Of a stretch of 64,000 nt of DNA, positions 23,014-62,452 are shown piece after piece (the stretch's first letter is position 1; every line of letters begins with the position of its first letter). The notes under the pieces are model-generated. The model did not search any database. It was not told the DNA's origin and saw only the letters and a list, made by a program, of their open reading frames with translations. Source of the DNA: a virus; IMG/VR virus record IMGVR_UViG_3300037606_000137, positions 1-64,000 of that record; one strand, written 5' to 3'. The translations under genes were made by a program, and so were the position numbers.

Positions 23014-23979
23014 TTAAAATCTTTTAGGTTTATTTGGGATTTTATATTTTGTTTCATATTTGATATTACTATCAGTTAATGCGTTTAAACCAATTACAAT
23101 ATCAGAAACGTGTAGATTAATTACACTATGATAATCATCAGCACGGTAACCACCAAACAAAGTAAAACTTACTGGTAATGATTTACCCATAATTAAATCC
23201 ATATGTTTTACCCAAGACCAAAAGATTTTAGAACACATTAACCAATATTTAGTATTAACTTGTCCCCCCAAATCATCATTAATATGACTATCAGCACCGT
23301 GACACCATACGACATAATCAATTTTACCCTTAAGAATTGAATTTTTTAATGTTGTATATAAATAATGTGTTAATTGTGATGTGTATTCTTTATTTACATC
23401 AGTTGGATTAAAATTAAAGCCGTTTGGTACAGCTTTATTTAAATCTGGAACAAAACCTCTACAATCTTCAATAGAGTTCCCGTAATGACCATCTAAATCC
23501 AAATAACAACCAACTTTACCAAGTTCTCTATATATTTTTACTGATGCTACAACTTGACCAGCAAACGTACAAAAACCAGAACCAGCATATGGGCGTGCAT
23601 GATGAAAGCCAGATACAGGTGCAAATACAATATCATCTGGTTTATTAATCGAATGTTTAATTGAGTGATATAATGAAGATGTTGTATATGTTAAAGATGT
23701 AACTAATTCTTCACTCCATGGAATAGATGATGCTAATTTATGTCCAGGTCTATTTAAATGAAATACTTCATTCACCCAACGTTTAGTATGTGCAATTTGA
23801 AAATCAGCCTTTGTAAAAGCTTTAAATTTAGGTTGTATACGTACATAAGCATTTGCTGCTTTCATGAGCTCAGATACGACCAATTTAGGTTTAAGTGGCG
23901 ATTTAGAATATGACAATGCTATGTTTTCTTGAAGAACTTGTTTTGTCGTATAATAAGTTATAATTTTTTTATTTCTCAT
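23014..23979 (-). CDS. Zn-dependent deacetylase, HDAC (Rpd3/Hda1/AcuC) family
   Basis: GFHHA, GSGFC, LDLDGHYGN, GADSH..D.LG, GGY motifs. Confidence 0.9.
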   Translation of the reverse strand: MRNKKIITYYTTKQVLQENIALSYSKSPLKPKLVVSELMKAANAYVRIQPKFKAFTKADFQIAHTKRWVNEVFHLNRPGHKLASSIPWSEELVTSLTYTTSSLYHSIKHSINKPDDIVFAPVSGFHHARPYAGSGFCTFAGQVVASVKIYRELGKVGCYLDLDGHYGNSIEDCRGFVPDLNKAVPNGFNFNPTDVNKEYTSQLTHYLYTTLKNSILKGKIDYVVWCHGADSHINDDLGGQVNTKYWLMCSKIFWSWVKHMDLIMGKSLPVSFTLFGGYRADDYHSVINLHVSDIVIGLNALTDSNIKYETKYKIPNKPKRF

Positions 23980-27298: not shown

Positions 27299-27744
27299 TA
27301 ACAACTATAAATGAATTTAAAAATTCAATAAATGAAGATTATAAAAATTTTGATATAGAAATTAAATTTCTAGATGAAATTGATGATAATATTATTGAAA
27401 CATTATTATCTAGTTTTGGAGATTATAATCAAACAGAAAAAACATTATATATTTGGGAAACAACAGATCCTGACATGGATAATGTTTATATTATTTTAGA
27501 TGATAATTTTACAGAAGACCAATATATATTAACTACTAATGAAGAATCTGATATAACTAATGAAGGAAGAGGTTTTACATTAAAAGAAATTAAGTTTAAA
27601 GCAATTGATACACTTAAAAACTTTGGTATAAAAGTACCAACAGTAGAAGAAGTAGATGGTATGGTTACAATATTTAAAACCTATATTAATAAACATAATT
27701 TAGGTGTTATTATGGAATCCACAAAAAATGATGAATTGGTTTAA
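27295..27744 (+). CDS. MITT-tag protein
   Basis: MITTINEFKNSINE. Confidence 0.65.
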   Translation: MITTINEFKNSINEDYKNFDIEIKFLDEIDDNIIETLLSSFGDYNQTEKTLYIWETTDPDMDNVYIILDDNFTEDQYILTTNEESDITNEGRGFTLKEIKFKAIDTLKNFGIKVPTVEEVDGMVTIFKTYINKHNLGVIMESTKNDELV

Positions 27745-27983
27745 TAAATAACCAACTCATCATTTTTTATAGCTTTACGAATGTATCTCATAAGCGTTAT
27801 TGCTTTAATACAAGCAGGAAATGTAGTTGTACCAACATCTTCTTTATCATTCATATTCACAGGAAATGAATACTTTGCTGTTTCTGTTTTTACTTCATAA
27901 TAAATTACTCCAGCAATTACATGACTAATAGTAGCAAAATTGTTATTCATAACAATATGCTTGATTGTGTTTGTGTTTTCCAT
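27741..27983 (-). CDS. hypothetical phage protein
   Basis: FPV...DVG..TF....KAITLMRYIRKA. Confidence 0.65.
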   Translation of the reverse strand: MENTNTIKHIVMNNNFATISHVIAGVIYYEVKTETAKYSFPVNMNDKEDVGTTTFPACIKAITLMRYIRKAIKNDELVIY

Positions 27984-28090
27984 AACTAATTAAATTGTAT
28001 TTTTTTTTTTATATAATTAGTTGTTAATGTACAGTACTCGAACCTGTTGTGCTACCGATTAGCCATTACATATAAATACAATATTGTTTG

Positions 28091-28163
28091 TGATCCCGGT
28101 GTGGCTCGAACACACGACTCTTCCGTTAAAAGCGGAATACTCTACCAACTGAGTTACGAAATC
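28091..28163 (-). tRNA. tRNA-Lys(UUU)
   Basis: Acceptor GATTTCG/CGGGATC, anticodon arm TTCCG-CTTTTAA-CGGAA, TTCGAGC T-loop. Confidence 0.92.
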
Positions 28164-28176
28164 ATTTAAAATTTTG

Positions 28177-28248
28177 TCACCCCGGTTGGTACTAATCCAA
28201 CGTCCTACTGATTAAAAGTCAGTGACTCCATCATTGAGCTACAAGGTG
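28177..28248 (-). tRNA. tRNA-Lys(UUU) with atypical T-loop
   Basis: CACCTTG/CGGGGTG, ACTGA-CTTTTAA-TCAGT, T-arm GTTGG-ATTAGTA-CCAAC. Confidence 0.75.
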
Positions 28249-28508
28249 TTATTATTTTATTCAACACCTTGAAAATTCATCAATGATGTTGTTATTACTG
28301 TTTATATTGTTTTATTGTTTTCATTTTATATTGTTTTATTTTTTACCCTCACAGTTGGATTCGAACCATTTTTTTCTATCTAACCAATTAGAAAGTATAC
28401 ACTAATTGGTTTGCCGCTCGGATATTCATTACTTTTAACAAAATGTTAAAAGTGTCACTATTTTAATTTTCTTCCTTTCTTCCAACCTTGATCTAGAAAA
28501 TGTCTGCG

Positions 28509-28594
28509 GGTGTTAGACGGGAATTGAACCCGCATGTTCTTACGAACACCTATTTCACAGATAGGCTGGACAAACGAATATTCCACTCTAACAC
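28509..28594 (-). tRNA. tRNA-His(GUG) with long variable arm and no encoded G-1
   Basis: GTGTTAG/CTAACAC with C73; CCTAT-CTGTGAA-ATAGG; variable hairpin TGTTC-GTAA-GAACA. Confidence 0.85.
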
Positions 28595-28596
28595 AG

Positions 28597-28669
28597 CGGA
28601 CCCAGACAGATTCGAACTGTCGACACTCCGGTCTTCAACCGGATGCTCTACCAACTGAGCTATGGGTCC
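28597..28669 (-). tRNA. tRNA-Phe(GAA)
   Basis: GGACCCA/TGGGTCC, TCCGG-TTGAAGA-CCGGA, canonical D and T arms. Confidence 0.93.
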
Positions 28670-28732
28670 ATATGTTCGAAGTATACTTATTTATACTTTC
28701 GTGCTTTACGGCACATTTACGAACTAGTTTTG

Positions 28733-28817
28733 CTATTACGGTAGGATTCGAACCTACGATGTGATTTCTCAACCAGATTAACAGTCTGGAGCGTTCGGCC
28801 TCTACGCAAACGTAATA
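28733..28817 (-). tRNA. tRNA-Asn(GUU) with long variable arm
   Basis: TATTACG/CGTAATA with G73; CCAGA-CTGTTAA-TCTGG; variable TGA-GAAA-TCA. Confidence 0.87.
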
Positions 28818-28848
28818 ATGTAAAGTTATTTTTAAATAACCTCTTTAG

Positions 28849-28921
28849 TACCCCCCATCAGATTCGAACTGACATCGTACGATTTTTGGAAATCGACATA
28901 ATACCTTTATACCAAAGGGGT
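28849..28921 (-). tRNA. tRNA-Trp(CCA)-like, apparent 8-nt anticodon loop
   Basis: ACCCCTT/GGGGGGT, CGAT-TTCCAAAA-ATCG, GTCAG-TTCGAAT-CTGAT. Confidence 0.65.
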
Positions 28922-28931
28922 GTGTATGTAT

Positions 28932-28967
28932 AAAAAAAAACCCTAAACTTTTCAGCTCAGGGTTTTT
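28932..28967 (-). terminator. attenuator terminator directly upstream of the tRNA operon
   Basis: Minus strand CCCTGAGCT-GAAA-AGTTTAGGG followed by T9. Confidence 0.9.
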
Positions 28968-29002
28968 ATAATATTTATATTAAATTTAAATCTTTAACAA
29001 AA

Positions 29003-29080
29003 TTATATAATTTCTTCTGAGCCACTGGTGATATTCCAGAACTTAAAATTAAAATTATTATGTTTGTTAAAATTTTTCAT
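29003..29080 (-). promoter_or_regulatory. leader peptide uORF MKNFNKHNNFNFKFWNITSGSEEII of a tRNA-operon attenuator
   Basis: Codons 2-16 are only K/N/F/H/W; contains GGCTCAG (29023-29017) complementary to CTGAGCT (28960-28954) in the terminator. Confidence 0.85.
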
Positions 29081-29199
29081 TATTTCTTGTTGTATTAATT
29101 ATACACATAAAGTGTATTTTTGTTTAATTATATATTAAAGTTTTATTCTCTCTTTTTAATCTTTTACAAATATATATATAATAATTTAAATATAGAAAT

Positions 29200-32913: not shown

Positions 32914-32997
32914 TAGAAAAGAATGGAATCGAACCATTGTCTTGTCCAAGGATTCTCGAGATCGGATGGACTGCTCTAACCACTGAGCTACATTTCT
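32914..32997 (-). ncRNA. tRNA-like RNA with elongated anticodon arm
   Basis: Canonical D and T arms; GTCCA-TCC-GAT-CTCGAGA-ATC-CT-TGGAC. Confidence 0.65.
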
Positions 32998-33206: not shown

Positions 33207-34076
33207 TTATTCTTTCTTATTCATTTTTCTACCCTTAATCCACCCAACATTTATAAATGATTGTAATTCTTTTATTGTAATTTTTTTATTTATATCGTCT
33301 TTAGTAATCCAACAAGTTCCAAATGATGCATTCTTAATACCTGCATTTTTACTTTTTTTCATTTTTTGTTTAGTTTCTTCTGAATGTTTTTTACCTGTCC
33401 AATTATGAACCAATTCACCTGATAAATATCTAGGATCATTAATAGAAACATTAAATGTATTACCATCTTTATCTTTAACTGTTATTGTATTTTTTAATAC
33501 GTGTATTAATACACCTGATAAATATCTAGGATCATTAATAGAAACACTAAATGTATTTCCTTTAGAATCTTTAACTGGTATGAAATTTTTTGCAATTCCA
33601 TTTAATTCACCTGATAAATATTTAGGATCATCACAGAATACACTAAATGTTTTACCATCTTTATCTTTAACTGTTGTCATTCCTTTTGTGTTATGAACTA
33701 ATTCACCTGATAAATATCTTGGATCGTCACAAAAAACACTAAATGTTTTACCATATTTATTTTTAACTGTAACCATTCCTAGTTTACCAGCATAACCACC
33801 AAAATTAATATTCATACAATATTTATCTTCGAGTATTTCTCTCGTTAATAAATCAATTTCAGCTTGAATTAAATCTTCTCTATTGTCAAATTGTTCTATA
33901 ATTTCTCGTTTGAAATTATCTTTACCATATCTATGTATGGAATTTCGTAAATATTTTCCTGATCCTAAATATGAATCATTTAAATTATTAGTTGAATGTA
34001 TACCATAATAATACTTTCCATTTATCAAATTTGTAGTTTTATACAAATAATGATATTTTTTATCTATGTTTCTCAT
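33207..34076 (-). CDS. Seg-like GIY-YIG homing endonuclease within the tRNA island
   Basis: YLYKTTN...YYGIH...YLGSG; four ~31-aa repeats V.DKDG.TFSV..DDPRYLSG; NUMOD3-like KHSEETKQKM. Confidence 0.85.
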   Translation of the reverse strand: MRNIDKKYHYLYKTTNLINGKYYYGIHSTNNLNDSYLGSGKYLRNSIHRYGKDNFKREIIEQFDNREDLIQAEIDLLTREILEDKYCMNINFGGYAGKLGMVTVKNKYGKTFSVFCDDPRYLSGELVHNTKGMTTVKDKDGKTFSVFCDDPKYLSGELNGIAKNFIPVKDSKGNTFSVSINDPRYLSGVLIHVLKNTITVKDKDGNTFNVSINDPRYLSGELVHNWTGKKHSEETKQKMKKSKNAGIKNASFGTCWITKDDINKKITIKELQSFINVGWIKGRKMNKKE

Positions 34077-34115: not shown

Positions 34116-34186
34116 TAGTGTATACTGGATTTGAACCAATGGCCTCCGGACTTAACCGACGCTCTCCCAGACTGAGCTAATACACA
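34116..34186 (-). ncRNA. tRNA-like RNA with shortened anticodon arm
   Basis: Good D and T arms; TCGG-TTAAGT-CCGG. Confidence 0.6.
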
Positions 34187-34673: not shown

Positions 34674-34891
34674 CTCTTTTGATTGTTAAACAAATATAAG
34701 AATAATATTTTAATAATAAAAATAAATCTTAATTTTTTTTGTACTATTTTATTTGTTGCGAGGAAAGGAATCGAACCTCCAAAAATCGCTACTCTAACCC
34801 AATTGAGCTACCTCGCTATAATATTTTCAATCTCTTTTGATTGTTAAACAAATATAAGAATAATATTTTAATAATAAAAATAAATCTTAAT
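34674..34891. repeat. 60-bp exact direct repeat (34674-34733, 34832-34891) containing a TATATTTG promoter box
   Basis: ctcttttgattgttaaacaaatataagaataatattttaataataaaaataaatcttaat occurs twice. Confidence 0.9.
34756..34817 (-). ncRNA. tRNA-like RNA with no anticodon arm
   Basis: GCGAGG/CCTCGC acceptor, GCTC..GAGT D-arm, 10-nt linker, GGAGG-TTCGATT-CCTTT. Confidence 0.65.
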
Positions 34892-38698: not shown

Positions 38699-39964
38699 TT
38701 AATCTTTAATAATAACTAAATATTTAATTGTACATTGTTTTGCTTGATATACCATAAATTCATCATTTCTTAAATCTGCACCACCATGAGCATAAACTGA
38801 ATCAAAACCGTCTTTATTAATAATATCATGTGACAATTTATAACATGATGAATCATGTTTATAAATATGTTTTTGTTCACCAACATGTACATCGTATAAC
38901 GCCAATATAGCTTCATCTGAATTTCCTTTTGCCCAGTATGAACCTCTACGTGATGTGTAACCTATTGATTTTTGACATTTTGATGCAAAATATATGGAAT
39001 TTCCAAACATTGACCCTGTATGAACAGCATTTGATGGTCGAATAATAAGACCAGATGTCATAATAGACCACCAATTTTCATTACGAGAACCATGCCAGAA
39101 CAATTCAGTGATTTTATTTTTAACGTTTGTTAAATGATTACCAAACAAAGATTGTGTTTTAATATTAATAACTTCATAGGCTTCTTTAAATTGATTTGAA
39201 TTAGAACCCATAAGTTTTTTAATTTGATCAATAATTGTTTTATCAGTAACTTCAACAATTTCTAAACCTGATGCTTTAATCATATCTGTTTGAACATCTT
39301 CGACACCATCATTATTTATATCTAAATTTGGTGTATTTAATTTAACCTGTCCGACCATTACATCTAATGTTGCTTGTTCGTCGATAATTATTTTATTTTT
39401 TGTATCGGTTAAATTATCATCTTCATTTATTAAATGTAATTTAACGTTTTTCATTTTTCTAGGAACAATCCCATAAAATTCTAATAATAAACTATTAAAT
39501 GTTTTAATATTTGTTTTACTTAAATCAAAATTAACAATACTATCTAATACTTCTTGTGCACGAACAACTTGTTTTTCAGTTACATTTTCAGCTGATACTG
39601 TATAGTTTTTTTCAACTGATCCTGTTGCCCATGCTTGTAATTTTTTTACTAAAGATACAACAGAACTAGAACGTGTAGAAATAAAATCTTTTATTTTTGT
39701 TCCTGTATCTTTTGTATCTACATTTTCAACAATAAATAAATCAGTATTATCTTTATAACCTTTTTTAGTTTTACTTTTATATGTTGCATCCCATTTACTC
39801 ATAGGATATGTTTGTGTCTGTGGATTTGCTCCCACTCTACCAAATTCCACTTTAAATGTATTATCTGTATTTTCAGTCATGTGATAAAACTTATTTGAAT
39901 TAACAAGACCAGATATTAATATTAATTTAACTATTTTACCCATTATTTTACTTTTTATTTTCAA
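38699..39964 (-). CDS. PARP: WGR, regulatory and catalytic domains
   Basis: NSNKFY...FGRVG (WGR); WHGSR, GSMFG..IYFA, KS.GY, NDEFMVY (H-Y-E triad). Confidence 0.92.
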   Translation of the reverse strand: MKIKSKIMGKIVKLILISGLVNSNKFYHMTENTDNTFKVEFGRVGANPQTQTYPMSKWDATYKSKTKKGYKDNTDLFIVENVDTKDTGTKIKDFISTRSSSVVSLVKKLQAWATGSVEKNYTVSAENVTEKQVVRAQEVLDSIVNFDLSKTNIKTFNSLLLEFYGIVPRKMKNVKLHLINEDDNLTDTKNKIIIDEQATLDVMVGQVKLNTPNLDINNDGVEDVQTDMIKASGLEIVEVTDKTIIDQIKKLMGSNSNQFKEAYEVINIKTQSLFGNHLTNVKNKITELFWHGSRNENWWSIMTSGLIIRPSNAVHTGSMFGNSIYFASKCQKSIGYTSRRGSYWAKGNSDEAILALYDVHVGEQKHIYKHDSSCYKLSHDIINKDGFDSVYAHGGADLRNDEFMVYQAKQCTIKYLVIIKD

Positions 39965-44777: not shown

Positions 44778-46685
44778 TTAATATCCAGCTTTTTTTAATG
44801 ATAAATTTAATTCATCAAGTTCAGTATTCCAAATTTCTTCGGGTGTTTTTAATTTATATAATTTTATTTCTAATTTCATATCTTTTGCTTGTTTTCTATA
44901 TTCATCATATTTTTCTTTTGATAAATGATATACTGGAATATTTAATAAATAATCATAATTATCATTATATTTATCAAATTCCATATCTTCTAAATTTTTA
45001 ATAATATCAGATTTAGATTTATTATTTATTAAAACAGCTCCATCAATTACGGCTTTAATAAAACATACAAGATTAAAATATCTAATGTATTGTTTTTCTA
45101 AAATTTTAATATATGATTCTTTACGTTTTATATAATATTGCAATCTTAAATCAAACCAAGTATTTAATAATTCTTCAGCAGTATTCCATTTAACAATTTT
45201 ATTATCTAAAAATGTATTCATATTATTAATAGATATATTTGCAGTTAATTTTAATAATGATTCTAAGTTATTAATTTTTGTTCCAGCATTTAATGTAATT
45301 GTTATATGTACTAATTCATCTGTAGAATTATCTAAATATGTTTTAATAATTTTATCATCACATAATTTATCTAAAATTGAAATATATTTATCTGTTGATA
45401 CATCTACCGGTAATTCTGTTATTAAAACTTGTAATTTATTTTTAGATAAAGTAAAAATACCTTTTGAAATATATGTATTTCTTTCTGCGTCCCAATCTAA
45501 ATCACCATTCCATTTATTATATGATGGATTAATTGCATATTTAATATCAGGTCGTGTTAATTTTTTTTGTATAACTTGAATCAATGCCATTGGATCATAT
45601 TTAGGTACGTCTGTAGACCAACCTGTACCAATTCCAGATGTACCATTTACTAAAAGTGTAGGTATAATAGGTAAAAAATATTCAGGTTCTATACGATCAA
45701 CATCTTCATATAAATAATTTAAAATTTGTTCATCTTCTTTTCTAAAAATTAAACTGGTAATTGGATTTAAATATGTGTAAATATATCTAGGACTTGCTGC
45801 AGATTTTGGATCACGTCTTGATCCAAAATTACCTTTTGGTATAAACATCGAAATATTGTTACTGAATACAAAATCCTGTGCCATATTAATAATAGTTCCA
45901 TACATGTTAGATTCGCCATGAGCATAATGTGTTTGTTCTGCAACATAAGCACCAAATTGTGCAACTTTAGTTTCTGCTTTTAAATTACGTTTAAAAGCAC
46001 CAAACATGATTTTTCTTTGAGACGGTTTGAACCCGTCAATTAAATGTGGTATAGATATAATATTATCATAATTACTAAATTGAATAAATTCAGTATCAAT
46101 AAAATCATTTATATTGTTTGGTTTTCCAAATTTATCTGGTAAAATTTCACCTTTATAATTTGTCATCCATTCTTTACGTTCATTAGCTCTTGTTTTATTA
46201 AAAACCAAATCAATTTTATCACTATCACGTTTATCGATAAATTTAAATTTAATTAAATGTTTATCAATATTTTTAAACATTTCTTTAATTTCAGGTGCTG
46301 TAATTGTACCTAAACCTTTATAATATTTTATAGTAAACCCATTTAATTTATCATTAACTTTATCTCTTTTATATTTATCAATATCGTAATACTCTTTAAT
46401 AACTTTACCTTTTGTAGCTTTTACAATAGGTGTTATAAATTCATAACAAAAACCTAATTCTAACAATTCAGGCCACATTTTATGTATAAAATTAATTAAT
46501 AAACCTTTAATTGAAATACCAAAACAATTATGTGTTAACATATATCCAAGTTCATGTTTAATATGAAATGTGTGATCATTTTCAATAGTTAAATCTATGC
46601 ATTTTGTTTCTTTGTTTATGTGTGAAATACTGTCTATTTTATGTATTTCATATTGACTCAAATCTATATTTATTTTTTCTATCAT
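44778..46685 (-). CDS. C-intein (53 aa) plus type IIA topoisomerase C-part (end of TOPRIM and GyrA-like region)
   Basis: MLTHN/CFG junction at 46527/46526; YYKGLGT, DGFKPSQRK, YAHGE, ASPRYI, NGTSGIGTG. Confidence 0.92.
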   Translation of the reverse strand: MIEKINIDLSQYEIHKIDSISHINKETKCIDLTIENDHTFHIKHELGYMLTHNCFGISIKGLLINFIHKMWPELLELGFCYEFITPIVKATKGKVIKEYYDIDKYKRDKVNDKLNGFTIKYYKGLGTITAPEIKEMFKNIDKHLIKFKFIDKRDSDKIDLVFNKTRANERKEWMTNYKGEILPDKFGKPNNINDFIDTEFIQFSNYDNIISIPHLIDGFKPSQRKIMFGAFKRNLKAETKVAQFGAYVAEQTHYAHGESNMYGTIINMAQDFVFSNNISMFIPKGNFGSRRDPKSAASPRYIYTYLNPITSLIFRKEDEQILNYLYEDVDRIEPEYFLPIIPTLLVNGTSGIGTGWSTDVPKYDPMALIQVIQKKLTRPDIKYAINPSYNKWNGDLDWDAERNTYISKGIFTLSKNKLQVLITELPVDVSTDKYISILDKLCDDKIIKTYLDNSTDELVHITITLNAGTKINNLESLLKLTANISINNMNTFLDNKIVKWNTAEELLNTWFDLRLQYYIKRKESYIKILEKQYIRYFNLVCFIKAVIDGAVLINNKSKSDIIKNLEDMEFDKYNDNYDYLLNIPVYHLSKEKYDEYRKQAKDMKLEIKLYKLKTPEEIWNTELDELNLSLKKAGY

Positions 46686-47719
46686 AAGTATATTATGTTT
46701 TTAATTATTTTTAATTGTTTTATTATGTCTATTAATATTTTTTCTTCTGGTACATTGTTTTCCCATAAAATAATAAGTGGTCCATTTGTTGATTCTATAA
46801 TTTGTTTATTTCTAATTTCATCATCTTTCCAAATTTCGTATGCATATTTCTTTTTTAATTTATGATAATAGTCTTTTTTGTAATTTCTTGGGTCACAGTG
46901 CCAAAATTGCCCAAAAAATTCTAAACATATATTATAATCTACTAAATAAAAATCTACAATTTTTGGTCTTATTTTGTTTAAAATATGAATTGGATATTCT
47001 TCGATATATTTAATATTGTATAATTCTAATGTTTGTTTAATTTTTTGTGATACTTTACTTATTTTTGTTCCAGTTGTAACTTTTATTAATTTTGCTAAAT
47101 ATGATTCATATTTAGTTTTACCTATATCATATCCAAATTTATTTATATACCAATCTAAAGTATTAGATTTTCCTATTTTATCACATCTCTCTTTATATTT
47201 TATTGGTCCGTCAATTTCACCATATCTTATAATATAACCAGCTAAATTTGTACGCTGTGATATTGGTACATTATCACCAGATTTATTTCTGTTTGGTAAT
47301 ACTATATATTGTGCATCTTCTAATGTTATTTTTTTTATTATTGATAAATATTTTGGATTAGAACCAATGTGTTCATATGTTTTTTTATCATATGATGTAC
47401 CCAATATTTTTAAACTTAAATCATTTTTACATTCAATACTATTACAAAAAAAACCACATTTATAGTATCTAGTAAATGTATAATTTTCATTATCTAATCT
47501 ATAAATAAAAAAAGAGTTTTTATTACAATTTCCACATTTTTCTATAGGTTTATCCTCAACATAATATCTTTTAATGTAATCATCAAATATTATATTATGT
47601 TTTCTTTTAACATGACTAATTAAACCACTATTATTATTTACTATTTTATTACATATTTTACAAGTCATACACATACCAAATTGTTTATATTTATATATTA
47701 ATTTTGGTATGTGTATCAA
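46682..47719 (-). CDS. free-standing Vsr/DUF559-like homing endonuclease
   Basis: C2H2-like finger; VDFY...LEFFGQFWH; overlaps both topoisomerase halves by 4 nt. Confidence 0.8.
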   Translation of the reverse strand: MIHIPKLIYKYKQFGMCMTCKICNKIVNNNSGLISHVKRKHNIIFDDYIKRYYVEDKPIEKCGNCNKNSFFIYRLDNENYTFTRYYKCGFFCNSIECKNDLSLKILGTSYDKKTYEHIGSNPKYLSIIKKITLEDAQYIVLPNRNKSGDNVPISQRTNLAGYIIRYGEIDGPIKYKERCDKIGKSNTLDWYINKFGYDIGKTKYESYLAKLIKVTTGTKISKVSQKIKQTLELYNIKYIEEYPIHILNKIRPKIVDFYLVDYNICLEFFGQFWHCDPRNYKKDYYHKLKKKYAYEIWKDDEIRNKQIIESTNGPLIILWENNVPEEKILIDIIKQLKIIKNIIYL

Positions 47720-49497
47720 TTTCTTTTTATTAATACTAAATCTGTGTATAGCAATGATTCTGCATAAATTACTATAGTTTCACCATTGCGTAATACAATT
47801 AATTTGTGTTGTTTACTACATAAATATTCAGTGCCTGAAACCATAAATGACACCATATCATTTTTTATAGATGCAATTATATTTATAACTTTTTTATATT
47901 CTCCGGTGTGTGTTAATACATAATCATCATATGTAATATTTTTTATTTTCTTTTCGCCATCTTTTGTTAAAACTATAGTATTTTCTTCTAAACAGTCAGC
48001 ATCAGTAAAAAATACAATTTTACCATATCTTAATTCGTTTATATCTGTATATTTTTTACCCGGTACTAATCCAATAATTTTAATAATATTTGCTATTTCA
48101 TCATTATTAATTATTTTAGATACCGGTACATCTCTTACATTTAATGGTCTTCCTTTTATTGGAAAAACACCCCAATAATCTCTACCAACAACACTCAACC
48201 CTGTTATAACTGTTCCTTTTGCACTATCACCTTCTGTAATACAAAGTGTTGATTTATAACCACTTGTAGTTCCAGCTTTATGTGCATCAACTAATTTTTC
48301 TACACGAATTGTTTTACCAGCAGATTTTTTATTCATTTTATTCAATGCTGCTTGTTCTTTCATTAAAACCCATTCTAAAATAGATTCTATGATTTCAGAT
48401 TTCATTAATAATTTATATAATTTATCAGATAAATCAACATCATCTATAATTTTAGATATTAAATTTTCTTTTGTTTGTGCATCAAATTTAGGATTAGCTA
48501 TTTTACATATTAAAAACATGTGAAATTTATTTTTAATATCGTTTGGTTTAATATTAATACCTTTTCTACCTTTAGTTAAATCTGTTATTAATCTTTTAAT
48601 AACTTTACTCATTATAAAATCAACATGTGTTCCACCTTGCCATGTAGTATTACCGTTTATAATAGAACAGTGTTCAAATGTGTCTGTACTTGATTGTGTT
48701 AAACCAATATTCCATTTATCATTAATTTCTTCTTTAAATAATTCTGCATTTGGTTCTATATGTAATGACATCCAATCTGAAATATTATTAATTTTAATTA
48801 ATTCATCATTAAAATAAACTTTAATATTTGGATTGTATGCAGCAATATCATATGCTCTTTTAATACATAATTTCATTGTATCATTACTATAATCAGCTAT
48901 TGGTAGTCTTGTAATATCTGTATTATATGTTACACATGTATATGATTTTTTACATGGTTTTATAACGGGTTTTGTTTTATTTCTTGCATTATTTGATAAT
49001 TCTTGATAATAAGATTTAGATCCATCACCACAATCAATAATAAATTTTGATGAAAATAATGCAACACAACCAGAACCAACACCATTTCTACCAGCACCAT
49101 AACGTTCTTCGGTATCATTGTAATTCGACCCAGAATTTAAACGCCCTAAAACCATTTCAGGAACATACATATTATGTTCTTTATGAATTGTAACTGGAAT
49201 ACCTTCACCATCATTCCATACTTTAATAGTCCAATCGCTTTCTATATTAATTTTAATGGTTGTAACTTTTTTCCCCCTTTGTGCATGATCTGACGCATTT
49301 GTTATAATTTCATCATATAATTTCAAAAATCCGGGTATATATGTTAATGATTGTTTTCGAATATGATTATCTTCAAAACACCACATATCTTTAGTTTGTT
49401 CTTCAATAGAACCAATCATTGTATCAGGTCTAAGTAAAATTTGTTCTTCTTGACTTAATAATTTATATTCTTCTTCAACATTTATTTTTTTTACCAT
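47716..49497 (-). CDS. type IIA topoisomerase N-part (ATPase and TOPRIM) plus 92-aa N-intein
   Basis: EIITNASD, WNDG.GIP, GRNGVG, TEGDSA, PIKGR.LN, FTDAD then CL at 47994 and block B SKQH. Confidence 0.92.
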   Translation of the reverse strand: MVKKINVEEEYKLLSQEEQILLRPDTMIGSIEEQTKDMWCFEDNHIRKQSLTYIPGFLKLYDEIITNASDHAQRGKKVTTIKINIESDWTIKVWNDGEGIPVTIHKEHNMYVPEMVLGRLNSGSNYNDTEERYGAGRNGVGSGCVALFSSKFIIDCGDGSKSYYQELSNNARNKTKPVIKPCKKSYTCVTYNTDITRLPIADYSNDTMKLCIKRAYDIAAYNPNIKVYFNDELIKINNISDWMSLHIEPNAELFKEEINDKWNIGLTQSSTDTFEHCSIINGNTTWQGGTHVDFIMSKVIKRLITDLTKGRKGINIKPNDIKNKFHMFLICKIANPKFDAQTKENLISKIIDDVDLSDKLYKLLMKSEIIESILEWVLMKEQAALNKMNKKSAGKTIRVEKLVDAHKAGTTSGYKSTLCITEGDSAKGTVITGLSVVGRDYWGVFPIKGRPLNVRDVPVSKIINNDEIANIIKIIGLVPGKKYTDINELRYGKIVFFTDADCLEENTIVLTKDGEKKIKNITYDDYVLTHTGEYKKVINIIASIKNDMVSFMVSGTEYLCSKQHKLIVLRNGETIVIYAESLLYTDLVLIKRN

Positions 49498-50633: not shown

Positions 50634-51974
50634 ATGAGAACATTAAAAGAAATTATAAAATTATTAGATATTAAAACTAAATCAAAAGATTTAAAAAAGG
50701 TTTTATATGATAAATTAATTAAAAACAAAATAAATATGAAAGAACAAATTAAATCATTTTTATTAAAAATTAAAATACAACTAAAATTAGTTAATTGGAA
50801 TTCTATATCACAATATCAAAAATTGTCTGAAGATTTTATGAGAGAACATAAAGATTATGTTAATTGGCATTCTATATCATATTATCAAAAGTTATCAGAA
50901 TCATTTATAACAGAACATAAAGATAAAGTTAATTGGGAACGTATATCAAGTAATCAAAAGTTATCTGAATCTTTTATTACAGAACATAAAGATAGTGTTG
51001 ATTGGAATGCTATATCACAATTTCAAAATTTATCTGAATCTTTCATATCAGAACATAAAGATTATGTTTATTGGTATAATATATCTTGTTATCAAATGTT
51101 ATCTGAATCTTTTATTACAGAACATAAAGATAAAGTTAATTGGGAACGTATATCTTGTTATCAAAACTTATCAGAAGAATTCATTACAGAACATAAAGAT
51201 AAAGTTTCTTGGTATGATATATCACAATATAAAAAATTAACTGAATCATTCATTACAGAATTTAAAGATTATGTTGATTGGGAATGTATTTCACATTATA
51301 AAAAATTAACTGAATCATTCATTGAAAAACATAAAGATGAAGTTTTTTGGCCTTTTATATGTGAATATCAAAAGTTATCAGATTCATTTATAACTAAATT
51401 TCAAGATTATGTTGATTGGTATCGTATATCAAAATATCAAAATTTATCTGAAGAATTCATTACAGAACATAAAGATAAAGTTTCTTGGACATGTATTTCA
51501 AAATTTCAAAAATTATCGGAAGAATTTATAATTGAATATAAAGATTTAATTGATTGGTCTATTATATCAAAATTTCAAAAATTATCTGAATCATTCATAT
51601 CAGAACATAAATTAGAATTGAATCCTAATAGTTGGTTATATAAGGATGGTGATTATAAATTGGAAGCTATTAGAAAGACTGGTTTATATACAACTGATGA
51701 TAATTATGTTTATGGATTTAAAGGTATTAGACGGGATCGTTATAGTAAATTTAACTTTCAATTTCAATACTTAAAAGGTCAAGAATATGAATGTCATGCT
51801 GATTTCAATAATGATAATGAAAATTCATTTGGTTTGTCTGTTTGGACAAAAAAAGAAGCAACTGATTATTGTAAACAATTGGTTGTTGAAGTTAAAATAC
51901 ACAAAGATGATTTATCAGCATTAGTGCATAATGGTGGTAAAATTCGATGCCAAAAGTTTACAATTTTAAATTAA
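50634..51974 (+). CDS. Trp-repeat protein (about 13 x 22 aa) with C-terminal domain; likely start 50736
   Basis: V.W..IS.YQKLSE.FI.E.KD repeats. Confidence 0.8.
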   Translation: MRTLKEIIKLLDIKTKSKDLKKVLYDKLIKNKINMKEQIKSFLLKIKIQLKLVNWNSISQYQKLSEDFMREHKDYVNWHSISYYQKLSESFITEHKDKVNWERISSNQKLSESFITEHKDSVDWNAISQFQNLSESFISEHKDYVYWYNISCYQMLSESFITEHKDKVNWERISCYQNLSEEFITEHKDKVSWYDISQYKKLTESFITEFKDYVDWECISHYKKLTESFIEKHKDEVFWPFICEYQKLSDSFITKFQDYVDWYRISKYQNLSEEFITEHKDKVSWTCISKFQKLSEEFIIEYKDLIDWSIISKFQKLSESFISEHKLELNPNSWLYKDGDYKLEAIRKTGLYTTDDNYVYGFKGIRRDRYSKFNFQFQYLKGQEYECHADFNNDNENSFGLSVWTKKEATDYCKQLVVEVKIHKDDLSALVHNGGKIRCQKFTILN

Positions 51975-53236
51975 TTATTAGTATGAATTTTCAATTATTT
52001 ACAAAAACAAAAATAGAAAAAATTAAAAGTAATCATTCTTATGGTATACTTATTGAAGTTGGTGCTGGATGTCCGGTTTATAATGAATTATGTCAATATC
52101 AAAACACAGCTTCAAAAATTGTAATGTATGCAGAATCACCGAATTCTTGGATATATAATCAATTTAAATATAAAAATGAAAATGTAAGAGCAATATCAGC
52201 TGAAATTTGTCGTAATTTTATAGAACAAAAAAAGAATCATCATGGAATGTTAATTAATTTTGAATTAGTTAATACAATTCAAATTGCTAATGATGATAAA
52301 ACACAAACACATGGATGGTTTGGTTTAAAATATTTAGATGAAATTAAGTATTACCATTTTACTATTTCAAATAAAACAACAGACAGAAAATATTTATGTG
52401 AAATTATTTCAAAAATTGGTTTAGATATTTTAGCATCACAAAACAATGTAGAATTGTTAGATAATGGTTATATAGATCAAATTTTAGATAATAATTTAAA
52501 TCAATTAAAAGAAGAAACATTAACTGTTATTATTAATGGTAAATTAAATATTAATAATATCAATAATACAATAACTGTATTTACTCCAGATAATAATATA
52601 ATTAGATTTAATGATTATTTACGGTCTATTCAAAATAGTTCATTAACTGTATTTAAGGGTAGTTTTAATCCAATACATAAACAACATATCAATTTAATAG
52701 AAAGTGCACGAAAAGAGCTTAAATGTGATAATACAGTACTTTGTATTTCTGTTTACAATAGAGATATAACTAAAAAAATATGTGCAGAAAATTTATTAAA
52801 GCGTATACAAATATTAAATGATTTAGGATATACTGTTTTAATAGATTGTTTAGGACAATATCATTATTCATATACGTCAATGTTAAACAATGTCAATTTT
52901 AAAAATATAGAATTAAATTACATTATGGGTTCTGATATTATAAAAAGATTTTTACTTGATGAAGATGTTTATATAAAAGAGAAATCAAATAAAAACATTA
53001 CAGATTTTAATAATAAATGGGATAAATGTAATTTTCATTATGTATGTCGTGATGGTGTGTGTGATGTTAAAAAACATATTAATATAGATTTATTAAATGT
53101 TAAACATATGGATATTCATTATAACGAAATATCATCAACACAAATTAGACAATTACTATTGAATGAAGATTATGATACATTAAAAGAATTAGTTGGTGAT
53201 GAAATATTAACATTATATAAAAAACATAAAATATGA
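51947..53236 (+). CDS. NMN/NaMN adenylyltransferase-like (NadD fold) with CinA-like N-terminus
   Basis: GSFNPIHKQH, MGSD and EISSTQIR motifs; near NAMPT. Confidence 0.7.
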   Translation: MPKVYNFKLIISMNFQLFTKTKIEKIKSNHSYGILIEVGAGCPVYNELCQYQNTASKIVMYAESPNSWIYNQFKYKNENVRAISAEICRNFIEQKKNHHGMLINFELVNTIQIANDDKTQTHGWFGLKYLDEIKYYHFTISNKTTDRKYLCEIISKIGLDILASQNNVELLDNGYIDQILDNNLNQLKEETLTVIINGKLNINNINNTITVFTPDNNIIRFNDYLRSIQNSSLTVFKGSFNPIHKQHINLIESARKELKCDNTVLCISVYNRDITKKICAENLLKRIQILNDLGYTVLIDCLGQYHYSYTSMLNNVNFKNIELNYIMGSDIIKRFLLDEDVYIKEKSNKNITDFNNKWDKCNFHYVCRDGVCDVKKHINIDLLNVKHMDIHYNEISSTQIRQLLLNEDYDTLKELVGDEILTLYKKHKI

Positions 53237-53547
53237 AAGAACATATATTAAAACGATTTGGTACAAAAGAATTTGAATTTAAAAATGATGTTTTTTATAC
53301 AGATGAATATTGTATAACAACATACAATTATACTGAAGGATTTGGAATTATGTTTCATCCAACACGTGATAATGGTAAAACATATCAATTACATAAAGGC
53401 ACAAAAATTTATAAACGACCAAAAAAATCAGAAATTGTATTATGTGATACTATTTATAATACTATGATACAAAATGTATCACCATTTTTTAAATGTTTAG
53501 TAAGTGACGATTATACCAATTACGAAGAATATATACAAAAACCATAA
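53233..53547 (+). CDS. hypothetical protein
   Basis: 104-aa ORF. Confidence 0.55.
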   Translation: MKEHILKRFGTKEFEFKNDVFYTDEYCITTYNYTEGFGIMFHPTRDNGKTYQLHKGTKIYKRPKKSEIVLCDTIYNTMIQNVSPFFKCLVSDDYTNYEEYIQKP

Positions 53548-53690
53548 AATAATTATATTATAATTGTAGTTTAATAATTAAAAATATTTATTATATTTGC
53601 AATAAAATGTATTACAATTAAAACAATTATATAAAATAACATATAAACTATAAGTAAAAATTAATTAATTAATAAATAAAAAATAAAATT

Positions 53691-55142
53691 ATGAAACATT
53701 TTCAAAGCATGTGGAATATCATGCTCGCAACAGATAGCTATAAAGCTACACATCACGGTATGTTACCAAAAGGATTAACATATATGGAATCTTATGGTGA
53801 ATCAAGAGGTGGAGACTATCCATTTACGTTATTTTTTGGTATGCAATATTATTTAAAATCGTATTTAGTTGGTCAACAAGTCACAGAACAAAAAATTCAA
53901 GATGCTGTTAAATTTTATAATGCACATTTTGGTGTAGATAATATGTTTAATGAAGATGGTTGGAGATATATTCTTGATAAATACGATGGAAATTTACCTT
54001 TAAAAATAGAATCAGTAAAAGAAGGATCTATTGTACCAACAAAAAATATGTTATATAAAATTTCATCTACAGATGAAAAATGTGCATGGTTAGTAAATTG
54101 GGTAGAAACATTATTAATGAAATTATGGTACCCAATTACAGTTGCTACAAATTCATTAGCTGGTATGGAAATTGTCAACATACATGCAGAAAAATCAGGA
54201 ACTAAGTCAGGTAATGAATTTAAGTTAGTTGATTTTGGTTATAGAGGTGTTGCAAGTGAAGAACAAGCATGGCTTGGTGGTGCAGCAAATTTATTATCAT
54301 TTAAAGCTACAGATACCGTTGCTGGTATTAGAATGTTGATGGAATATTATGATGCACCAATGTGCGGATATTCAATTCCTGCAACAGAACATATGGTTAT
54401 GACAATTAGAGGTCGTGATTTTGAAAGAGAAACATATAAACAAATTTTATCTGATCCTAAATACCGTAGTGGTAAATTAGCATTAGTTTCTGATACATAT
54501 GATATTTATGCAGTATGTCGAATGTTATCAGAAGATACTGAATTAAAAGAATTAATTTTAAGTAGAAATGGACAATTGATTATACGTCCTGATTCAGGTG
54601 ATCCACAAGATGTTTTACTTAAATGTTTAGAAATTTTAGGTGATGGTTTTGGTTATACCGTAAATGAAAAAGGATATAAAGTATTAAATCCAAAAATTGG
54701 TTTATTACAAGGTGATGGTATTACAATATATACTATGCATGAAATAATGGAATATTTAGAAAGTGCAACAAATATGTGGTCATTTGATAATATAGCATTT
54801 GGTTCAGGTGGTGGATTATTGCAACACTTTAATAGAGATTCATTAAAATTTGCAATTAAAGCATGTTATGCAGTAACTGATGGTGTTGCTATTGATGTAT
54901 ATAAGGATCCAATTACAGGATCAGGTAAAACATCTAAGAAAGGACAATTATATACTGTATGGAATGATAAAACCGGATATGAAACAATTACAAAAGCAGA
55001 ATTTGAAACTAATAATAGTACAAATATGTTACAAGCTGTATTTTTAAATGGTGTTTTATATAACGAACAAACATATCAAGATATTATTGATACAAAAAAC
55101 AATGAAATAAAAAAATTAGAGAATTTAGAAGATGACAAATAA
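53691..55142 (+). CDS. nadV: nicotinamide phosphoribosyltransferase
   Basis: TDSYK..H, DFGYRG, PATEH, VSDTYD, IRPDSG, QGDG, FGSGGGLLQ, KDP.T..GK.SKKG. Confidence 0.95.
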   Translation: MKHFQSMWNIMLATDSYKATHHGMLPKGLTYMESYGESRGGDYPFTLFFGMQYYLKSYLVGQQVTEQKIQDAVKFYNAHFGVDNMFNEDGWRYILDKYDGNLPLKIESVKEGSIVPTKNMLYKISSTDEKCAWLVNWVETLLMKLWYPITVATNSLAGMEIVNIHAEKSGTKSGNEFKLVDFGYRGVASEEQAWLGGAANLLSFKATDTVAGIRMLMEYYDAPMCGYSIPATEHMVMTIRGRDFERETYKQILSDPKYRSGKLALVSDTYDIYAVCRMLSEDTELKELILSRNGQLIIRPDSGDPQDVLLKCLEILGDGFGYTVNEKGYKVLNPKIGLLQGDGITIYTMHEIMEYLESATNMWSFDNIAFGSGGGLLQHFNRDSLKFAIKACYAVTDGVAIDVYKDPITGSGKTSKKGQLYTVWNDKTGYETITKAEFETNNSTNMLQAVFLNGVLYNEQTYQDIIDTKNNEIKKLENLEDDK

Positions 55143-60966: not shown

Positions 60967-61890
60967 ATGTCAAAATTTAACATTCATGCAAAATTAACAA
61001 TAATTGAACAGGATTCAATTGATAAATATTTACAAGAATTGCGTTTAGATAAAACAACTACGCCGTTATCTCGAGCTGAACAAAATAGTTTATTTAGTCA
61101 ATACAAAATGACAGGTGACAAACTAATTAAAGATCGTTTAATTAAATCAAATTTACGATGGGTTATATCTGTTGCAAAACAATATACTTATACAAAAGTT
61201 AAATTAGCAGATTTAATTAATGAAGGAAATATTGGTATGATTGAAGCAATAGATAAATTTGATGTTTCTCGAGAAACGTCATTTATTACATTTGCGACAA
61301 ATTACATTAGATTAGCTATAACATCATATATTAATGACGTTGCTGTAGATATTCCACAACCAGCTAATCGTTTTAGAATTAATCGTTTAATTAAAAAAGC
61401 ATTATTAGATTTAAAAATATGTGGAAACAATACACCATCAGATTATCAATTAGTTGAATATTATGCATCAATTAAAAAACAATGTGATCCAATTTTAAGT
61501 GTTTCATTATTGAATGAAGTAAGAAACAATTCTAAAGATTTTGTATCAATGCATACAAGTGTATCATCTAGTAGTGAAGATTATGAATTAATTGATACAT
61601 TTAAATCTTCAAAAGAATGGAATGCAGATTTTGAAATGGAAAAAACTGAAAAAACAAATATTTTAAATGAATATTTAAAAAAACATTTAAATGAGCGTGA
61701 ATTAGAAATTATAACAATGTCATTTGGTTTAATCACACAACTGTCAATGACAAATGAAGAAATTTCATTTCGAACAGGATATACTCGTGAAAGAGTTGGA
61801 CAAATCATAAAAGAAGGTGTTAAAAAATTAAGTAAAAATAAAAACATTTTAAATGGTTTAAGTGAAACAAACTATAGCATTGTTTCTTAA
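60967..61890 (+). CDS. RpoD/SigA-like sigma-70 factor
   Basis: IDKYLQE, SNLRWVISVAK.Y, DLINEGNIGM.EA..KFD, TRERV.QI. Confidence 0.92.
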   Translation: MSKFNIHAKLTIIEQDSIDKYLQELRLDKTTTPLSRAEQNSLFSQYKMTGDKLIKDRLIKSNLRWVISVAKQYTYTKVKLADLINEGNIGMIEAIDKFDVSRETSFITFATNYIRLAITSYINDVAVDIPQPANRFRINRLIKKALLDLKICGNNTPSDYQLVEYYASIKKQCDPILSVSLLNEVRNNSKDFVSMHTSVSSSSEDYELIDTFKSSKEWNADFEMEKTEKTNILNEYLKKHLNERELEIITMSFGLITQLSMTNEEISFRTGYTRERVGQIIKEGVKKLSKNKNILNGLSETNYSIVS

Positions 61891-61904
61891 AAAAATAAAA
61901 TAAT

Positions 61905-61933
61905 AAACCCCACACTTTTATGTGTGGGGTTTA
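61905..61933 (+). terminator. intrinsic terminator
   Basis: aaaccccacac-ttttat-gtgtggggttt. Confidence 0.7.
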
Positions 61934-61966
61934 ATTTATATAATTGTTTAGATATTAAAAAAATAT

Positions 61967-62452
61967 ATGGAGAGTAATTATACTGATTGTTTACAATATA
62001 TACCAGATTTAAAAAAATATGTTAAAAAATGTGTAGGCGGAAGTGAATGGGAAGATGTTGTACAAGATACATTGTTATATTTATTTTTAAAGTATGATAA
62101 TATTAATGTTACAAATGTTAAAGGTTTATTAATAAATACATCACTATTTTTTATAAAAAAACATTTATCATATAATAGTAAAGTAAATACGTGTGAAATT
62201 AATGATACAAATATTATTATAGATTATAATAATGCAAATATTAAAATTGGAAAATATAATTCTATTTTAATAGATGATACATTATTTAATAATATTAATA
62301 GAGTATCAAAATCTTTATTTATACCATTCCAAATGCAATTAAATGGTAAATCTATAGAAAGTATAGCTAAAGTATTAAAAATAAATGAAAACACTATTAA
62401 AACACGAATAAGACGGTGTAAGTCTGTATTAAGAGAAAATATAATATTATGA
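61967..62452 (+). CDS. ECF-type sigma factor
   Basis: EDVVQDT; G.S.ESIA..L.I.ENTIKTRIRR. Confidence 0.8.
   Translation: MESNYTDCLQYIPDLKKYVKKCVGGSEWEDVVQDTLLYLFLKYDNINVTNVKGLLINTSLFFIKKHLSYNSKVNTCEINDTNIIIDYNNANIKIGKYNSILIDDTLFNNINRVSKSLFIPFQMQLNGKSIESIAKVLKINENTIKTRIRRCKSVLRENIIL

Follow-up and report, generated by a model that had tools for sequence, protein, structure and literature searches.

Two tRNA genes of a virus, tRNA-His(GUG) and tRNA-Asn(GUU), carry a long hairpin in their variable region. They lie in the first 64 kb of the 110,380 bp IMG/VR virus record IMGVR_UViG_3300037606_000137, and these 64,000 nucleotides, the whole stretch analysed, are called the window below. The arm is far beyond chance, because many relatives of both genes show a covarying arm helix, and both genes appear, from the sequences collected, to belong to old families restricted to phages, the scan of bacterial genomes having covered the His pattern. 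The best explanation as a whole, to which we give a probability of roughly 0.55, is that they are functional cognate phage tRNAs, made from an attenuated back-up operon, with an arm that serves for escape from nucleases. Gene structure, family membership, covariation, identity marks, operon layout and the presence of an enzyme gene are direct observations. The literature searched, which did not cover all journals, gave no account of phage tRNAs for Asn or His with a long arm, and the reviews of tRNA identity and non-canonical tRNAs in it make no mention of them. New here are the two kinds of 5' end in the His family, the presence of a Thg1-like gene, the control for Ser identity, the absence of the His family from the bacterial genomes scanned and the match between a leader peptide and the tRNAs that follow it.

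In the mechanism that we propose, the body would be that of an ordinary tRNA-Asn or tRNA-His, into whose variable region a hairpin of 3-5 bp has been inserted. The two tRNAs would decode Asn (AAY) and His (CAY) codons after being charged by the asparaginyl- and histidyl-tRNA synthetases (AsnRS and HisRS) of the host. Stalling of the ribosome within the leader, at a codon for Lys, Asn, Phe, His or Trp, would lead to an anti-terminator, and the tRNAs would then be made on demand. tRNA-His would be transcribed fused to tRNA-Phe, RNase P would leave G1 as its 5' end, and the missing G at position -1 (G-1) would probably be added opposite C73 by a phage Thg1-like enzyme. The arm would make the body of the tRNA unlike that of the host tRNA, and host tRNA-cutting defence nucleases would fail on it; it would still pass the synthetase, EF-Tu and the ribosome, all of which handle class II tRNAs anyway. 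Charging, G-1 addition, attenuation and nuclease evasion are the steps that we infer.

Structure and families of the long-arm tRNAs

The features pointed out in an earlier note on this DNA, namely the tRNA-His hairpin TGTTC-GTAA-GAACA, A8 and a D-loop without GG, are all present on the minus strand at 28509-28594, and so are the tRNA-Asn arm TGA-GAAA-TCA and G73 on the same strand at 28733-28817. ARAGORN, whose scoring had been proposed there as a check, called both genes on the minus strand. Read in a 7/5 register, tRNA-His has G1 at 28594, its anticodon at 28558-28556 and its discriminator C73 at 28509. The acceptor stem GUGUUAG/CUAACAC is followed by A8 and G9, then by a 4-bp D-stem (UGGA/UCCA) enclosing a D-loop of 11 nt, AUAUUCGUUUG, where one G is left at the G19 place. 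The anticodon stem CCUAU/AUAGG carries the 7-nt loop CUGUGAA, the T-arm is GCGGG-UUCAAUU-CCCGU, and the variable arm can also be read as a 5-bp hairpin, UGUUC/GAACA.

tRNA-Asn has the acceptor stem UAUUACG/CGUAAUA, with the pairs U1:A72, A2:U71 and U3:A70, and G73 at 28733. Its anticodon (28782-28780) lies in the 7-nt loop CUGUUAA with U33 (28784-28778), the D-loop has GG, the T-arm is standard and the stems are perfect. The variable region of 15 nt departs from the class I body, which has a loop of 4-5 nt, and the Rfam tRNA model takes the gene (44.6 bits) by handling the arm as an insertion. Among cultured phages, blastn matched tRNA-Asn, arm included, to an 82-nt gene of Cellulophaga phage phi4:1 that is labelled tRNA-Pseudo in GenBank, and to 87-nt genes labelled tRNA-Asn in phiKZ-like Pseudomonas phages; it found no relative of the tRNA-His gene among cultured phages. 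ARAGORN gives no tRNA-Asn in the phi4:1 array besides the long-arm one. The sequencing runs listed for this DNA are two salt-lake DNA runs, with no RNA run among them. In these two runs, which are of low depth, a related population has identical His and Phe genes, and other Asn-like tRNAs of the same lake, also seen at low depth, differ chiefly within the arm (28762-28771).

Both genes resemble bacterial class II tRNAs, especially tRNA-Tyr (E. coli tyrT/tyrU type), in having a hairpin at the variable region. The Asn arm is Tyr-like, with about one unpaired base on its 5' side, a stem of 3-4 bp and 3-4 unpaired bases on its 3' side, and some family members have a long D-loop containing GGCCGAA. 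The anticodon arm CAGACUGUUAAUCUG differs by one anticodon base from that of E. coli tRNA-Tyr. However, in place of GUA and A73 the phage tRNAs have the anticodons GUU and GUG and the discriminators G73 and C73, and the first pair of tRNA-Asn is U1:A72; moreover, the co-resident Tyr, Ser and Leu tRNAs are not consistently the nearest relatives. A nearest-neighbour test for an origin from Tyr, Ser or short Asn tRNAs found no co-resident isotype that is consistently nearest to the long-arm genes, indicating that they did not arise recently as chimeras with a Ser or Tyr tRNA.

The Asn family was collected from IMG/VR with a pattern made of the Asn anticodon arm, a gap exceeding the class I loop and a T-arm, which matched at least 120 contigs. 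ARAGORN run on the matched loci gave at least 107 distinct long-arm Asn genes, and a hairpin was parsed in 94 of the 107 among the matches listed. In a MAFFT alignment (A1) of 45 long-arm Asn sequences with ARAGORN-parsed hairpins, RNAalifold itself predicted the arm helix, which is 98.5% paired and in which both sides have changed in 13, 19 and 22 of the 45 sequences at the three pairs. Sliding the partners by one column lowers the pairing of the whole structure from 93% to 46-49%.

Fifteen distinct long-arm His genes were obtained from two IMG/VR scans. In their raw MAFFT alignment (A2), columns 49-51/63-65 are 75.6% paired and both sides have changed in 5, 7 and 5 sequences, the stems found including GUUC/GAAC, GUC/GAC, AGAA/UUCU and GGAA/UUCC; RNAalifold did not recover the arm from this raw His alignment, owing to gaps. 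A crude shuffle test of best-stem length was significant for Asn (3.55 vs 2.82 ± 0.07) and not for the 15 His arms (3.6 vs 3.43 ± 0.20), so that the support for the His arm comes from positional covariation. A covariance model built from 15 His relatives scored the window gene at 89.6 bits, non-family tRNAs at 58.7 bits or less, and the members in two complete genomes at 94.1 and 88.8 bits. In the complete genome G003, the long-arm gene, which has no G-1, is the sole tRNA-His seen.

In viruses, the His pattern gave 7 true genes among 14 matches. In 185,579 prokaryote species genomes (one each), it gave 98 matches of which none is a tRNA-His, 70 being transfer-messenger RNAs (tmRNAs) and 28 uncalled stretches. 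With a looser His pattern, 107 of the 117 matches were 3' domains of phage tmRNA; tmRNA genes were picked up in this way on more than 100 phage contigs (IMG/VR loci L138-L254), through a 3' domain that resembles the loosened pattern. Textbooks, tRNA identity reviews and annotation take a long variable arm as the sign of a Leu, Ser, Tyr or Sec tRNA. The earlier note had taken this rule as established for bacteria; it holds for cells and fails for phages. In IMG/VR loci not selected for isotype, 3 of 32 distinct tRNA-Asn and 1 of 30 distinct tRNA-His have the long arm, and among the tRNAs called in IMG/VR loci L003-L254 it is found on 18% of Cys, 18% of Ile, 12% of Thr, 11% of Met, 9% of Lys and 7% of Asp tRNAs, and on none of 142 Arg and 72 Gly tRNAs. 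Long arms were also seen on phage tRNAs for Trp, Glu, Pro and Val (L003-L254), and the huge phage LR745206 has three tRNA-Lys genes of 84-87 nt (L002 2994-3259).

The main rival to nuclease evasion is a purely structural role, in which the arm would stabilise the core of tRNAs that are AT-rich, poorly modified or weakened in the D-loop or T-loop, charging and decoding being cognate. The absence of G18 and the presence of A8 in the window tRNA-His would suit such a role, but the window tRNA-Asn has the arm despite a normal GG D-loop, a normal T-loop and perfect stems. Similarly, the 3 of 15 His-family members that lack GG in the D-loop, and the several with U·U acceptor mismatches, have to be set against the 12 of 15 long-arm His that keep GG. 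The genome has a GC content of only 23.5% and many tRNAs of huge phages are 80-94 nt long, as might be expected from a need for stability; however, a general stabiliser does not predict an arm that is concentrated in Cys, Ile, Thr, Met, Lys and Asp tRNAs and absent from those for Arg and Gly. We thus regard the structural explanation as unlikely, and the uneven distribution among isoacceptors speaks for nuclease evasion.

The 5' end of tRNA-His, the Thg1-like gene and the operon leader

G-1 is the main identity element for HisRS. The window tRNA-His does not encode it, position -1 (28595) being a U, because the gene sits 2 nt behind tRNA-Phe, in a tandem where the discriminator of tRNA-Phe is followed by CU and then by G1 of tRNA-His. 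Eight members of the His family, the window gene included, lie directly behind another tRNA with a CU spacer and U at -1; the upstream tRNA is Phe in the window and a short Asn in three relatives, and one U-1 member has C1:G72. Eight other members are preceded by ...AUG and encode G-1 opposite C73. Two of these G-1 members also encode CCA after C73, which argues for the 7/5 register with C73 as the discriminator.

A Thg1-type enzyme was predicted from the G-1-less tRNA-His and was then located at 62449-63342. The closest solved structure is the Thg1-like protein of Bacillus thuringiensis (BtTLP; 4kgk, E 1.4e-41), with which the 297-aa window protein aligns over residues 7-220. In the addition of a Watson-Crick G-1, BtTLP favours C73-tRNA-His about 50-fold over A73-tRNA-His (PMC3061083), and this is the reaction that the window tRNA-His would need. 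The two systems differ in that BtTLP prefers the repair of 5'-truncated tRNAs and its host encodes G-1, whereas the phage protein, with its predicted activity, has a C-terminal extension of 75 aa without a match. The Thg1-like gene is present in the window and in both complete genomes that have a long-arm His, a co-occurrence that is only suggestive of a link with the G-1-less tRNA-His. Thg1 has already been listed in jumbo phages, as an RNA-repair gene (PMC7824862). Two sigma-70-like open reading frames (ORFs; 60967-62452, plus strand) lie directly upstream of the window gene, the second overlapping it by 4 nt. In another record (G029; L265 ~1492-2487), the Thg1-like match is split by about 300 nt, which may represent an insertion or an intervening element.

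In another explanation, the arm would serve as a handle by which some protein of the phage, for instance an enzyme of modification or repair (the Thg1-like protein being one candidate), marks phage tRNAs as 'self'. RNA-repair kits do exist in jumbo phages (PMC7824862), and the Thg1-like protein is encoded alongside the long-arm His gene in the three phages just mentioned; however, no protein was found to track the arm, Thg1-like genes occur in 9 of 31 large phages without the long-arm His family, and phi4:1 and PA1C have a long-arm Asn and no Thg1. The handle explanation is therefore, in our view, distinctly improbable.

The tRNAs are preceded by a short leader ORF whose residues 2-16 are all K, N, F, H or W, a set that corresponds exactly to the tRNAs encoded behind it. 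The leader scores 15/15 in this respect, the next best of the 807 ATG ORFs of at least 16 codons in the genome scores 10, and the probability of such a composition by chance is 2e-9, given the composition of the proteome. In the leader, the segment GGCUCAG (29023-29017), located 12-17 nt before the stop codon, is predicted to form a 7-bp anti-terminator with CUGAGCU (28960-28954), the 5' arm of a terminator-like hairpin. In the folds, the anti-terminator forms if the 3' arm of the terminator is omitted, and the terminator wins if that arm is included. The layout is that predicted for a classical leader-peptide attenuator, similar to trpL, hisL, pheL and thrL in having a short codon-biased ORF and then a terminator whose 5' arm is able to pair upstream. 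The difference is that those attenuators gate biosynthetic genes, whereas the phage leader would gate tRNA genes, and five amino acids at once.

In G003, an unrelated complete phage, an ORF starting MRTINIHMISISNWRRNSH lies upstream of an Asn-His(long)-Trp-Ser-Ile-Met-Arg-Arg cluster (L270 1909-2010). After the initial Met, 17 of 18 residues match the cluster, and a small gene intervenes. A conserved ORF of 57-59 aa (M..ELVR.LG....DFK..FDK...) was also noticed directly upstream of the long-arm-His tRNA cluster in two distant complete phage genomes (L270 1652-1831, minus strand; L272 1323-1496, plus strand). An attenuator of this type would read the speed of decoding, not the identity of the amino acid, and its predicted presence would still argue for real decoders. 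As the leader is matched to the tRNAs, these are probably real decoders, made when their own codons slow. Such stalling control would fit the behaviour expected of a back-up set for scarce or destroyed host tRNAs.

Amino-acid identity and the role of the arm

As a control for Ser identity, we used the tRNA-Ser genes from the same phage loci. These co-resident tRNA-Ser have G1:C72 in 78%, G2:C71 in 89% and A3:U70 in 88% of cases, an arm of 4-7 bp and, in 67 of 96, one unpaired base 3' of the arm. Among the matches listed, the arm of long-arm Asn has 3-4 bp in 84 of 94 and is followed by 3-4 unpaired bases in 68 of 94. With its 3 bp and 4 unpaired bases, the window tRNA-Asn does not have the Ser-type orientation of the arm, and it has none of the three Ser acceptor pairs (G1:C72, G2:C71, A3:U70). 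The first pair of long-arm Asn is U1:A72, as is usual in bacterial tRNA-Asn, in 65 of 107 (61%) and G:C in 31% among the matches listed, a mix that is that of the short phage Asn (U1:A72 in 33 of 74). Pairs 2:71 and 3:70 are not fixed, A3:U70 reaching 24% vs 88% in phage Ser. G73 was found in 88 of the 107 long-arm Asn among the matches listed, and G73 (or U73), which belongs to Ser identity, is present in the window tRNA-Asn and absent from tRNA-His.

tRNA-His carries the anticodon GUG, C73 and all three His acceptor pairs. Long-arm His has C73 in 15 of 15 and G1:C72, U2:A71 and G3:C70 in 13, 12 and 12 of 15, compared with 38, 39 and 38 of 43 for short phage His. That AAY stands for Asn in this phage is indicated by at least 13 Asn residues of its topoisomerase II, each of which falls opposite an Asn in the alignment with human TOP2B; of the residues in the phage proteome, 9% are Asn. 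Taken together, these marks point to cognate charging with Asn and His and make mischarging with Ser unlikely.

The suggestion of chimeric, Ser-mischarged tRNAs made in the earlier note is disfavoured, the Ser acceptor pairs and arm geometry being absent and no isotype being consistently nearest. In its strongest form, this suggestion would be deliberate mistranslation, in which the seryl-tRNA synthetase (SerRS) reads the long arm and G73 and Ser is inserted at AAY codons, His codons being similarly miscoded. The long arm and G73 are indeed the main SerRS determinants (PMC7609411), allo-tRNAs with non-Ser anticodons are known (PMC5389517), and the G73:U73 ratio of long-arm Asn resembles that of phage Ser. 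However, the window tRNA-Asn lacks the Ser acceptor pairs, as does most of its family at A3:U70, the arm geometry differs (3-4 bp and 3-4 unpaired bases vs 4-7 bp and one), and tRNA-His has C73, not G73. In addition, AAY codons occupy conserved Asn sites of an essential enzyme in a proteome with 9% Asn, and in phi4:1 the long-arm gene is the sole phage tRNA-Asn. Deliberate mistranslation is thus very improbable, although some serylation of long-arm Asn may occur. Hardly credible is a decay of both genes into non-decoding tRNA-like elements, as suggested by the score of tRNA-His under the Rfam threshold and by the tRNA-like genes of the window whose anticodon arm is missing or rebuilt, since neither gene has a defect in its 7-nt anticodon loop or in the pairing of its acceptor, anticodon and T stems, both families show compensating changes in every helix, and the codons of both tRNAs occur in the leader peptide.

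The arm most likely serves for escape from the tRNA nucleases of the host. This reading, which the earlier note had raised as a remodelled body that evades tRNA-targeting toxins, fits the context because the families are phage-restricted, the operon is seemingly induced by stalling and the isoacceptors are known nuclease targets. AriB of the PARIS system cuts tRNA-Lys, Thr and Asn, and tRNA variants of phage T5 rescue infection (PMC12409363). In the same study, probable tRNA-His cleavage products of AriB were seen by in vivo 5'-end sequencing only, His not being a main target (PMC12409363). The T5 genes for tRNA-Lys(UUU), Thr(UGU) and Asn(GUU) are the closest parallel in function, as they are phage copies of nuclease-cut tRNAs, Asn included, and are required once the host copies have been destroyed (PMC12409363). 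They differ in that T5 escapes by point changes near the cut site 40/41 on a class I body, whereas the tRNAs described here carry a whole extra arm.

In structure, the nearest report is that of Mukai et al. (2017) on allo-tRNAs and (8/4) tRNA-His in phage clusters, which differ in discriminator and architecture (PMC5389517). Both sets are non-canonical tRNAs of phage clusters, with a phage tRNA-His that lacks G-1 and, in the allo-tRNAs, a long arm on non-Ser anticodons. However, the His tRNAs of that report, which belong to alphaproteobacterial phages, combine A73 or U73 with an 8/4 branch, whereas those described here have C73 and a 7/5 branch. The allo-tRNAs have Ser identity and long D (tetraloop) and anticodon stems, which are absent from the window tRNAs.

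Several results weigh against our reading of functional, cognate, nuclease-evading tRNAs. On the side of the structure, the Rfam tRNA model gave no match to tRNA-His at E<=10, and in another run 23.9 bits vs a gathering score of 29; the gene lacks G18 and has A8, and the same window holds clearly non-decoding tRNA-like genes. A8:U65 could also extend its acceptor to 8 bp with a T-stem of 4 bp (the 8/4 alternative), and ARAGORN offers a variant that starts one base later, with a 7-bp acceptor and a 4-bp T-stem; on the other hand, the U8 members of the family cannot form A8:U65, and the members encoding G-1 and CCA fit 7/5. On the side of the families, the 45 Asn sequences of the alignment had been selected for their parsed hairpins, and the conservation of the anticodon loop and T-loop in the Asn and His sets was imposed by the search patterns. 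On the side of identity, the G73:U73 ratio of long-arm Asn is close to that of phage tRNA-Ser. The link with Thg1 is weakened by the identity of only 32-39% between the Thg1-like proteins of the three phages, by the occurrence of Thg1-like genes in 9 of 31 large phage records, whatever the type of their tRNA-His, and by three records, 46-62% complete, with a G-1-less long-arm His, in which a Thg1-like gene was not found; most of the records compared are fragments. Finally, the window tRNA-Asn keeps U36-A-A-U-C (UAAUC) near the AriB cut site, and MenT/AbiEii-type toxins are reported to prefer long-arm tRNA-Ser (PMC11541572). The arm could thus also attract some toxins.

A broader proposal, which we put forward as possible but doubtful, is that tRNAs which are normally class I (Asn, His, Cys, Ile, Thr, Met, Lys, Asp and others) exist in large phages as a 'shadow' set of class II shape which, with the attenuator and completion by Thg1, would act as a sensor-and-replacement counter-defence. 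If so, the arm would block host anticodon-arm nucleases and spare the translation machinery, the attenuator would switch the set on only when exactly those codons slow, and the Thg1-like enzyme would supply the G-1 for which the tRNA-His gene has no place in its tandem. That Asn, His and other tRNAs recur in this covarying, phage-only form would mean that such a change is widely tolerated by the translation machinery, and it offers a concrete and testable idea of how phage tRNAs could be protected from tRNA-cutting immunity. The tRNAs could also be natural scaffolds for the engineering of orthogonal tRNAs. Annotation is affected as well, as illustrated by the long-arm tRNA-Asn of phi4:1 that GenBank labels a pseudo-tRNA. 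With a G-1-less tRNA-His, a phage Thg1-like enzyme and a codon-matched leader, charging and regulation are directly testable in cultured phages.

The operon and its surroundings

The features discussed above and the other members of the operon are collected in Table 1. No ORF of at least 150 aa overlaps 27299-29199, a non-coding stretch with a minus-strand row of tRNAs in the order Trp-like, Asn, Phe, His, tRNA-like RNA, Lys and Lys. The two long-arm genes are the only Asn and His tRNAs of the 110-kb record.

Table 1. Positions of the tRNA operon, its control elements and the Thg1-like gene in the window
Feature	Position	Strand	Basis
Promoter-like site TAAACA, 17 nt, TATAAT	29098-29126	-	Consensus scan, 10/12 matches; consensus match only
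Leader ORF, 25 codons, MKNFNKHNNFNFKFWNITSGSEEII	29003-29080	-	ORF list
Terminator-like hairpin, then nine U	28936-28967	-	Terminator scan; 14 nt before the first tRNA
First tRNA of the operon, Trp-like	28849-28921	-	Rfam 36.4 bits with alignment; ARAGORN 'ccaa'
tRNA-Asn(GUU), 85 nt, long variable arm	28733-28817	-	ARAGORN; Rfam tRNA 44.6 bits
tRNA-Asn variable arm U-UGA-GAAA-UCA-CAUC, 15 nt, 3-bp hairpin	28758-28772	-	Sequence; covariation
tRNA-Phe(GAA), ordinary	28597-28669	-	Rfam 70.3 bits
tRNA-His(GUG), 86 nt, long variable arm	28509-28594	-	ARAGORN; hand fold; family model 89.6 bits
tRNA-His variable arm U-GUUC-GUAA-GAAC-A-U	28534-28548	-	Sequence; family covariation
tRNA-like element	28340-28425	-	Anticodon arm unusable; acceptor, D and T arms intact
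tRNA with UUU (Lys) anticodon, odd T-loop	28177-28248	-	Rfam 47.7 bits
tRNA with UUU (Lys) anticodon, ordinary, end of the operon	28091-28163	-	Rfam 62.1 bits
Thg1-like protein gene, 297 aa	62449-63342	+	PF04446, E 3e-31; 108.5 bits vs cut-off 29.2

The anticodon loop of the Trp-like tRNA, UUCCAAAA, has 8 nt and gives CCA (Trp) when read with U33. ARAGORN assigns to it the four-base anticodon CCAA, and a +1 frameshift-type reading may be considered; a Trp codon is present in the leader peptide of the operon. Genes of the HisRS and of the Asn/Asp/Lys synthetase type were sought in the 110-kb record, which is about 28% complete, and none was found, a result of little weight. Since CheckV estimates the completeness of the record at only ~28%, the phage is very large. 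It comes from a salt lake and, judged by its marker genes, is a tailed jumbo phage. These markers are a T4-type large terminase, a phage lysozyme, sigma-70-like factors, a split type II topoisomerase and a GIY-YIG homing endonuclease.

Besides the element of the operon at 28340-28425, tRNA-shaped genes with an unusable anticodon arm were seen on the minus strand at 32914-32997, 34116-34186, 34756-34817 and ~28045-28090. Within this group of five, an 18-nt loop, a 6-nt loop, a missing anticodon arm and a 10-bp stem each occur in one gene, and the acceptor, D and T arms are intact. An ORF for a GIY-YIG/NUMOD3 SegE-like endonuclease (33207-34076) sits among these genes. The two parts of the topoisomerase (44778-46685 and 46682-49497, both minus strand) have eukaryotic Top2 as their best solved relatives (E 1e-115), a match far better than those to phage T4 gp52 (E 3e-34) and to bacterial ParC/GyrA. 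Other genes unusual for a phage encode a protein with PARP catalytic and WGR domains (38699-39964, minus strand), a histone-deacetylase-like protein (23014-23979, minus strand) and an NAD salvage pair (51947-55142, plus strand) made of NAMPT and a cytidylyltransferase-like protein.

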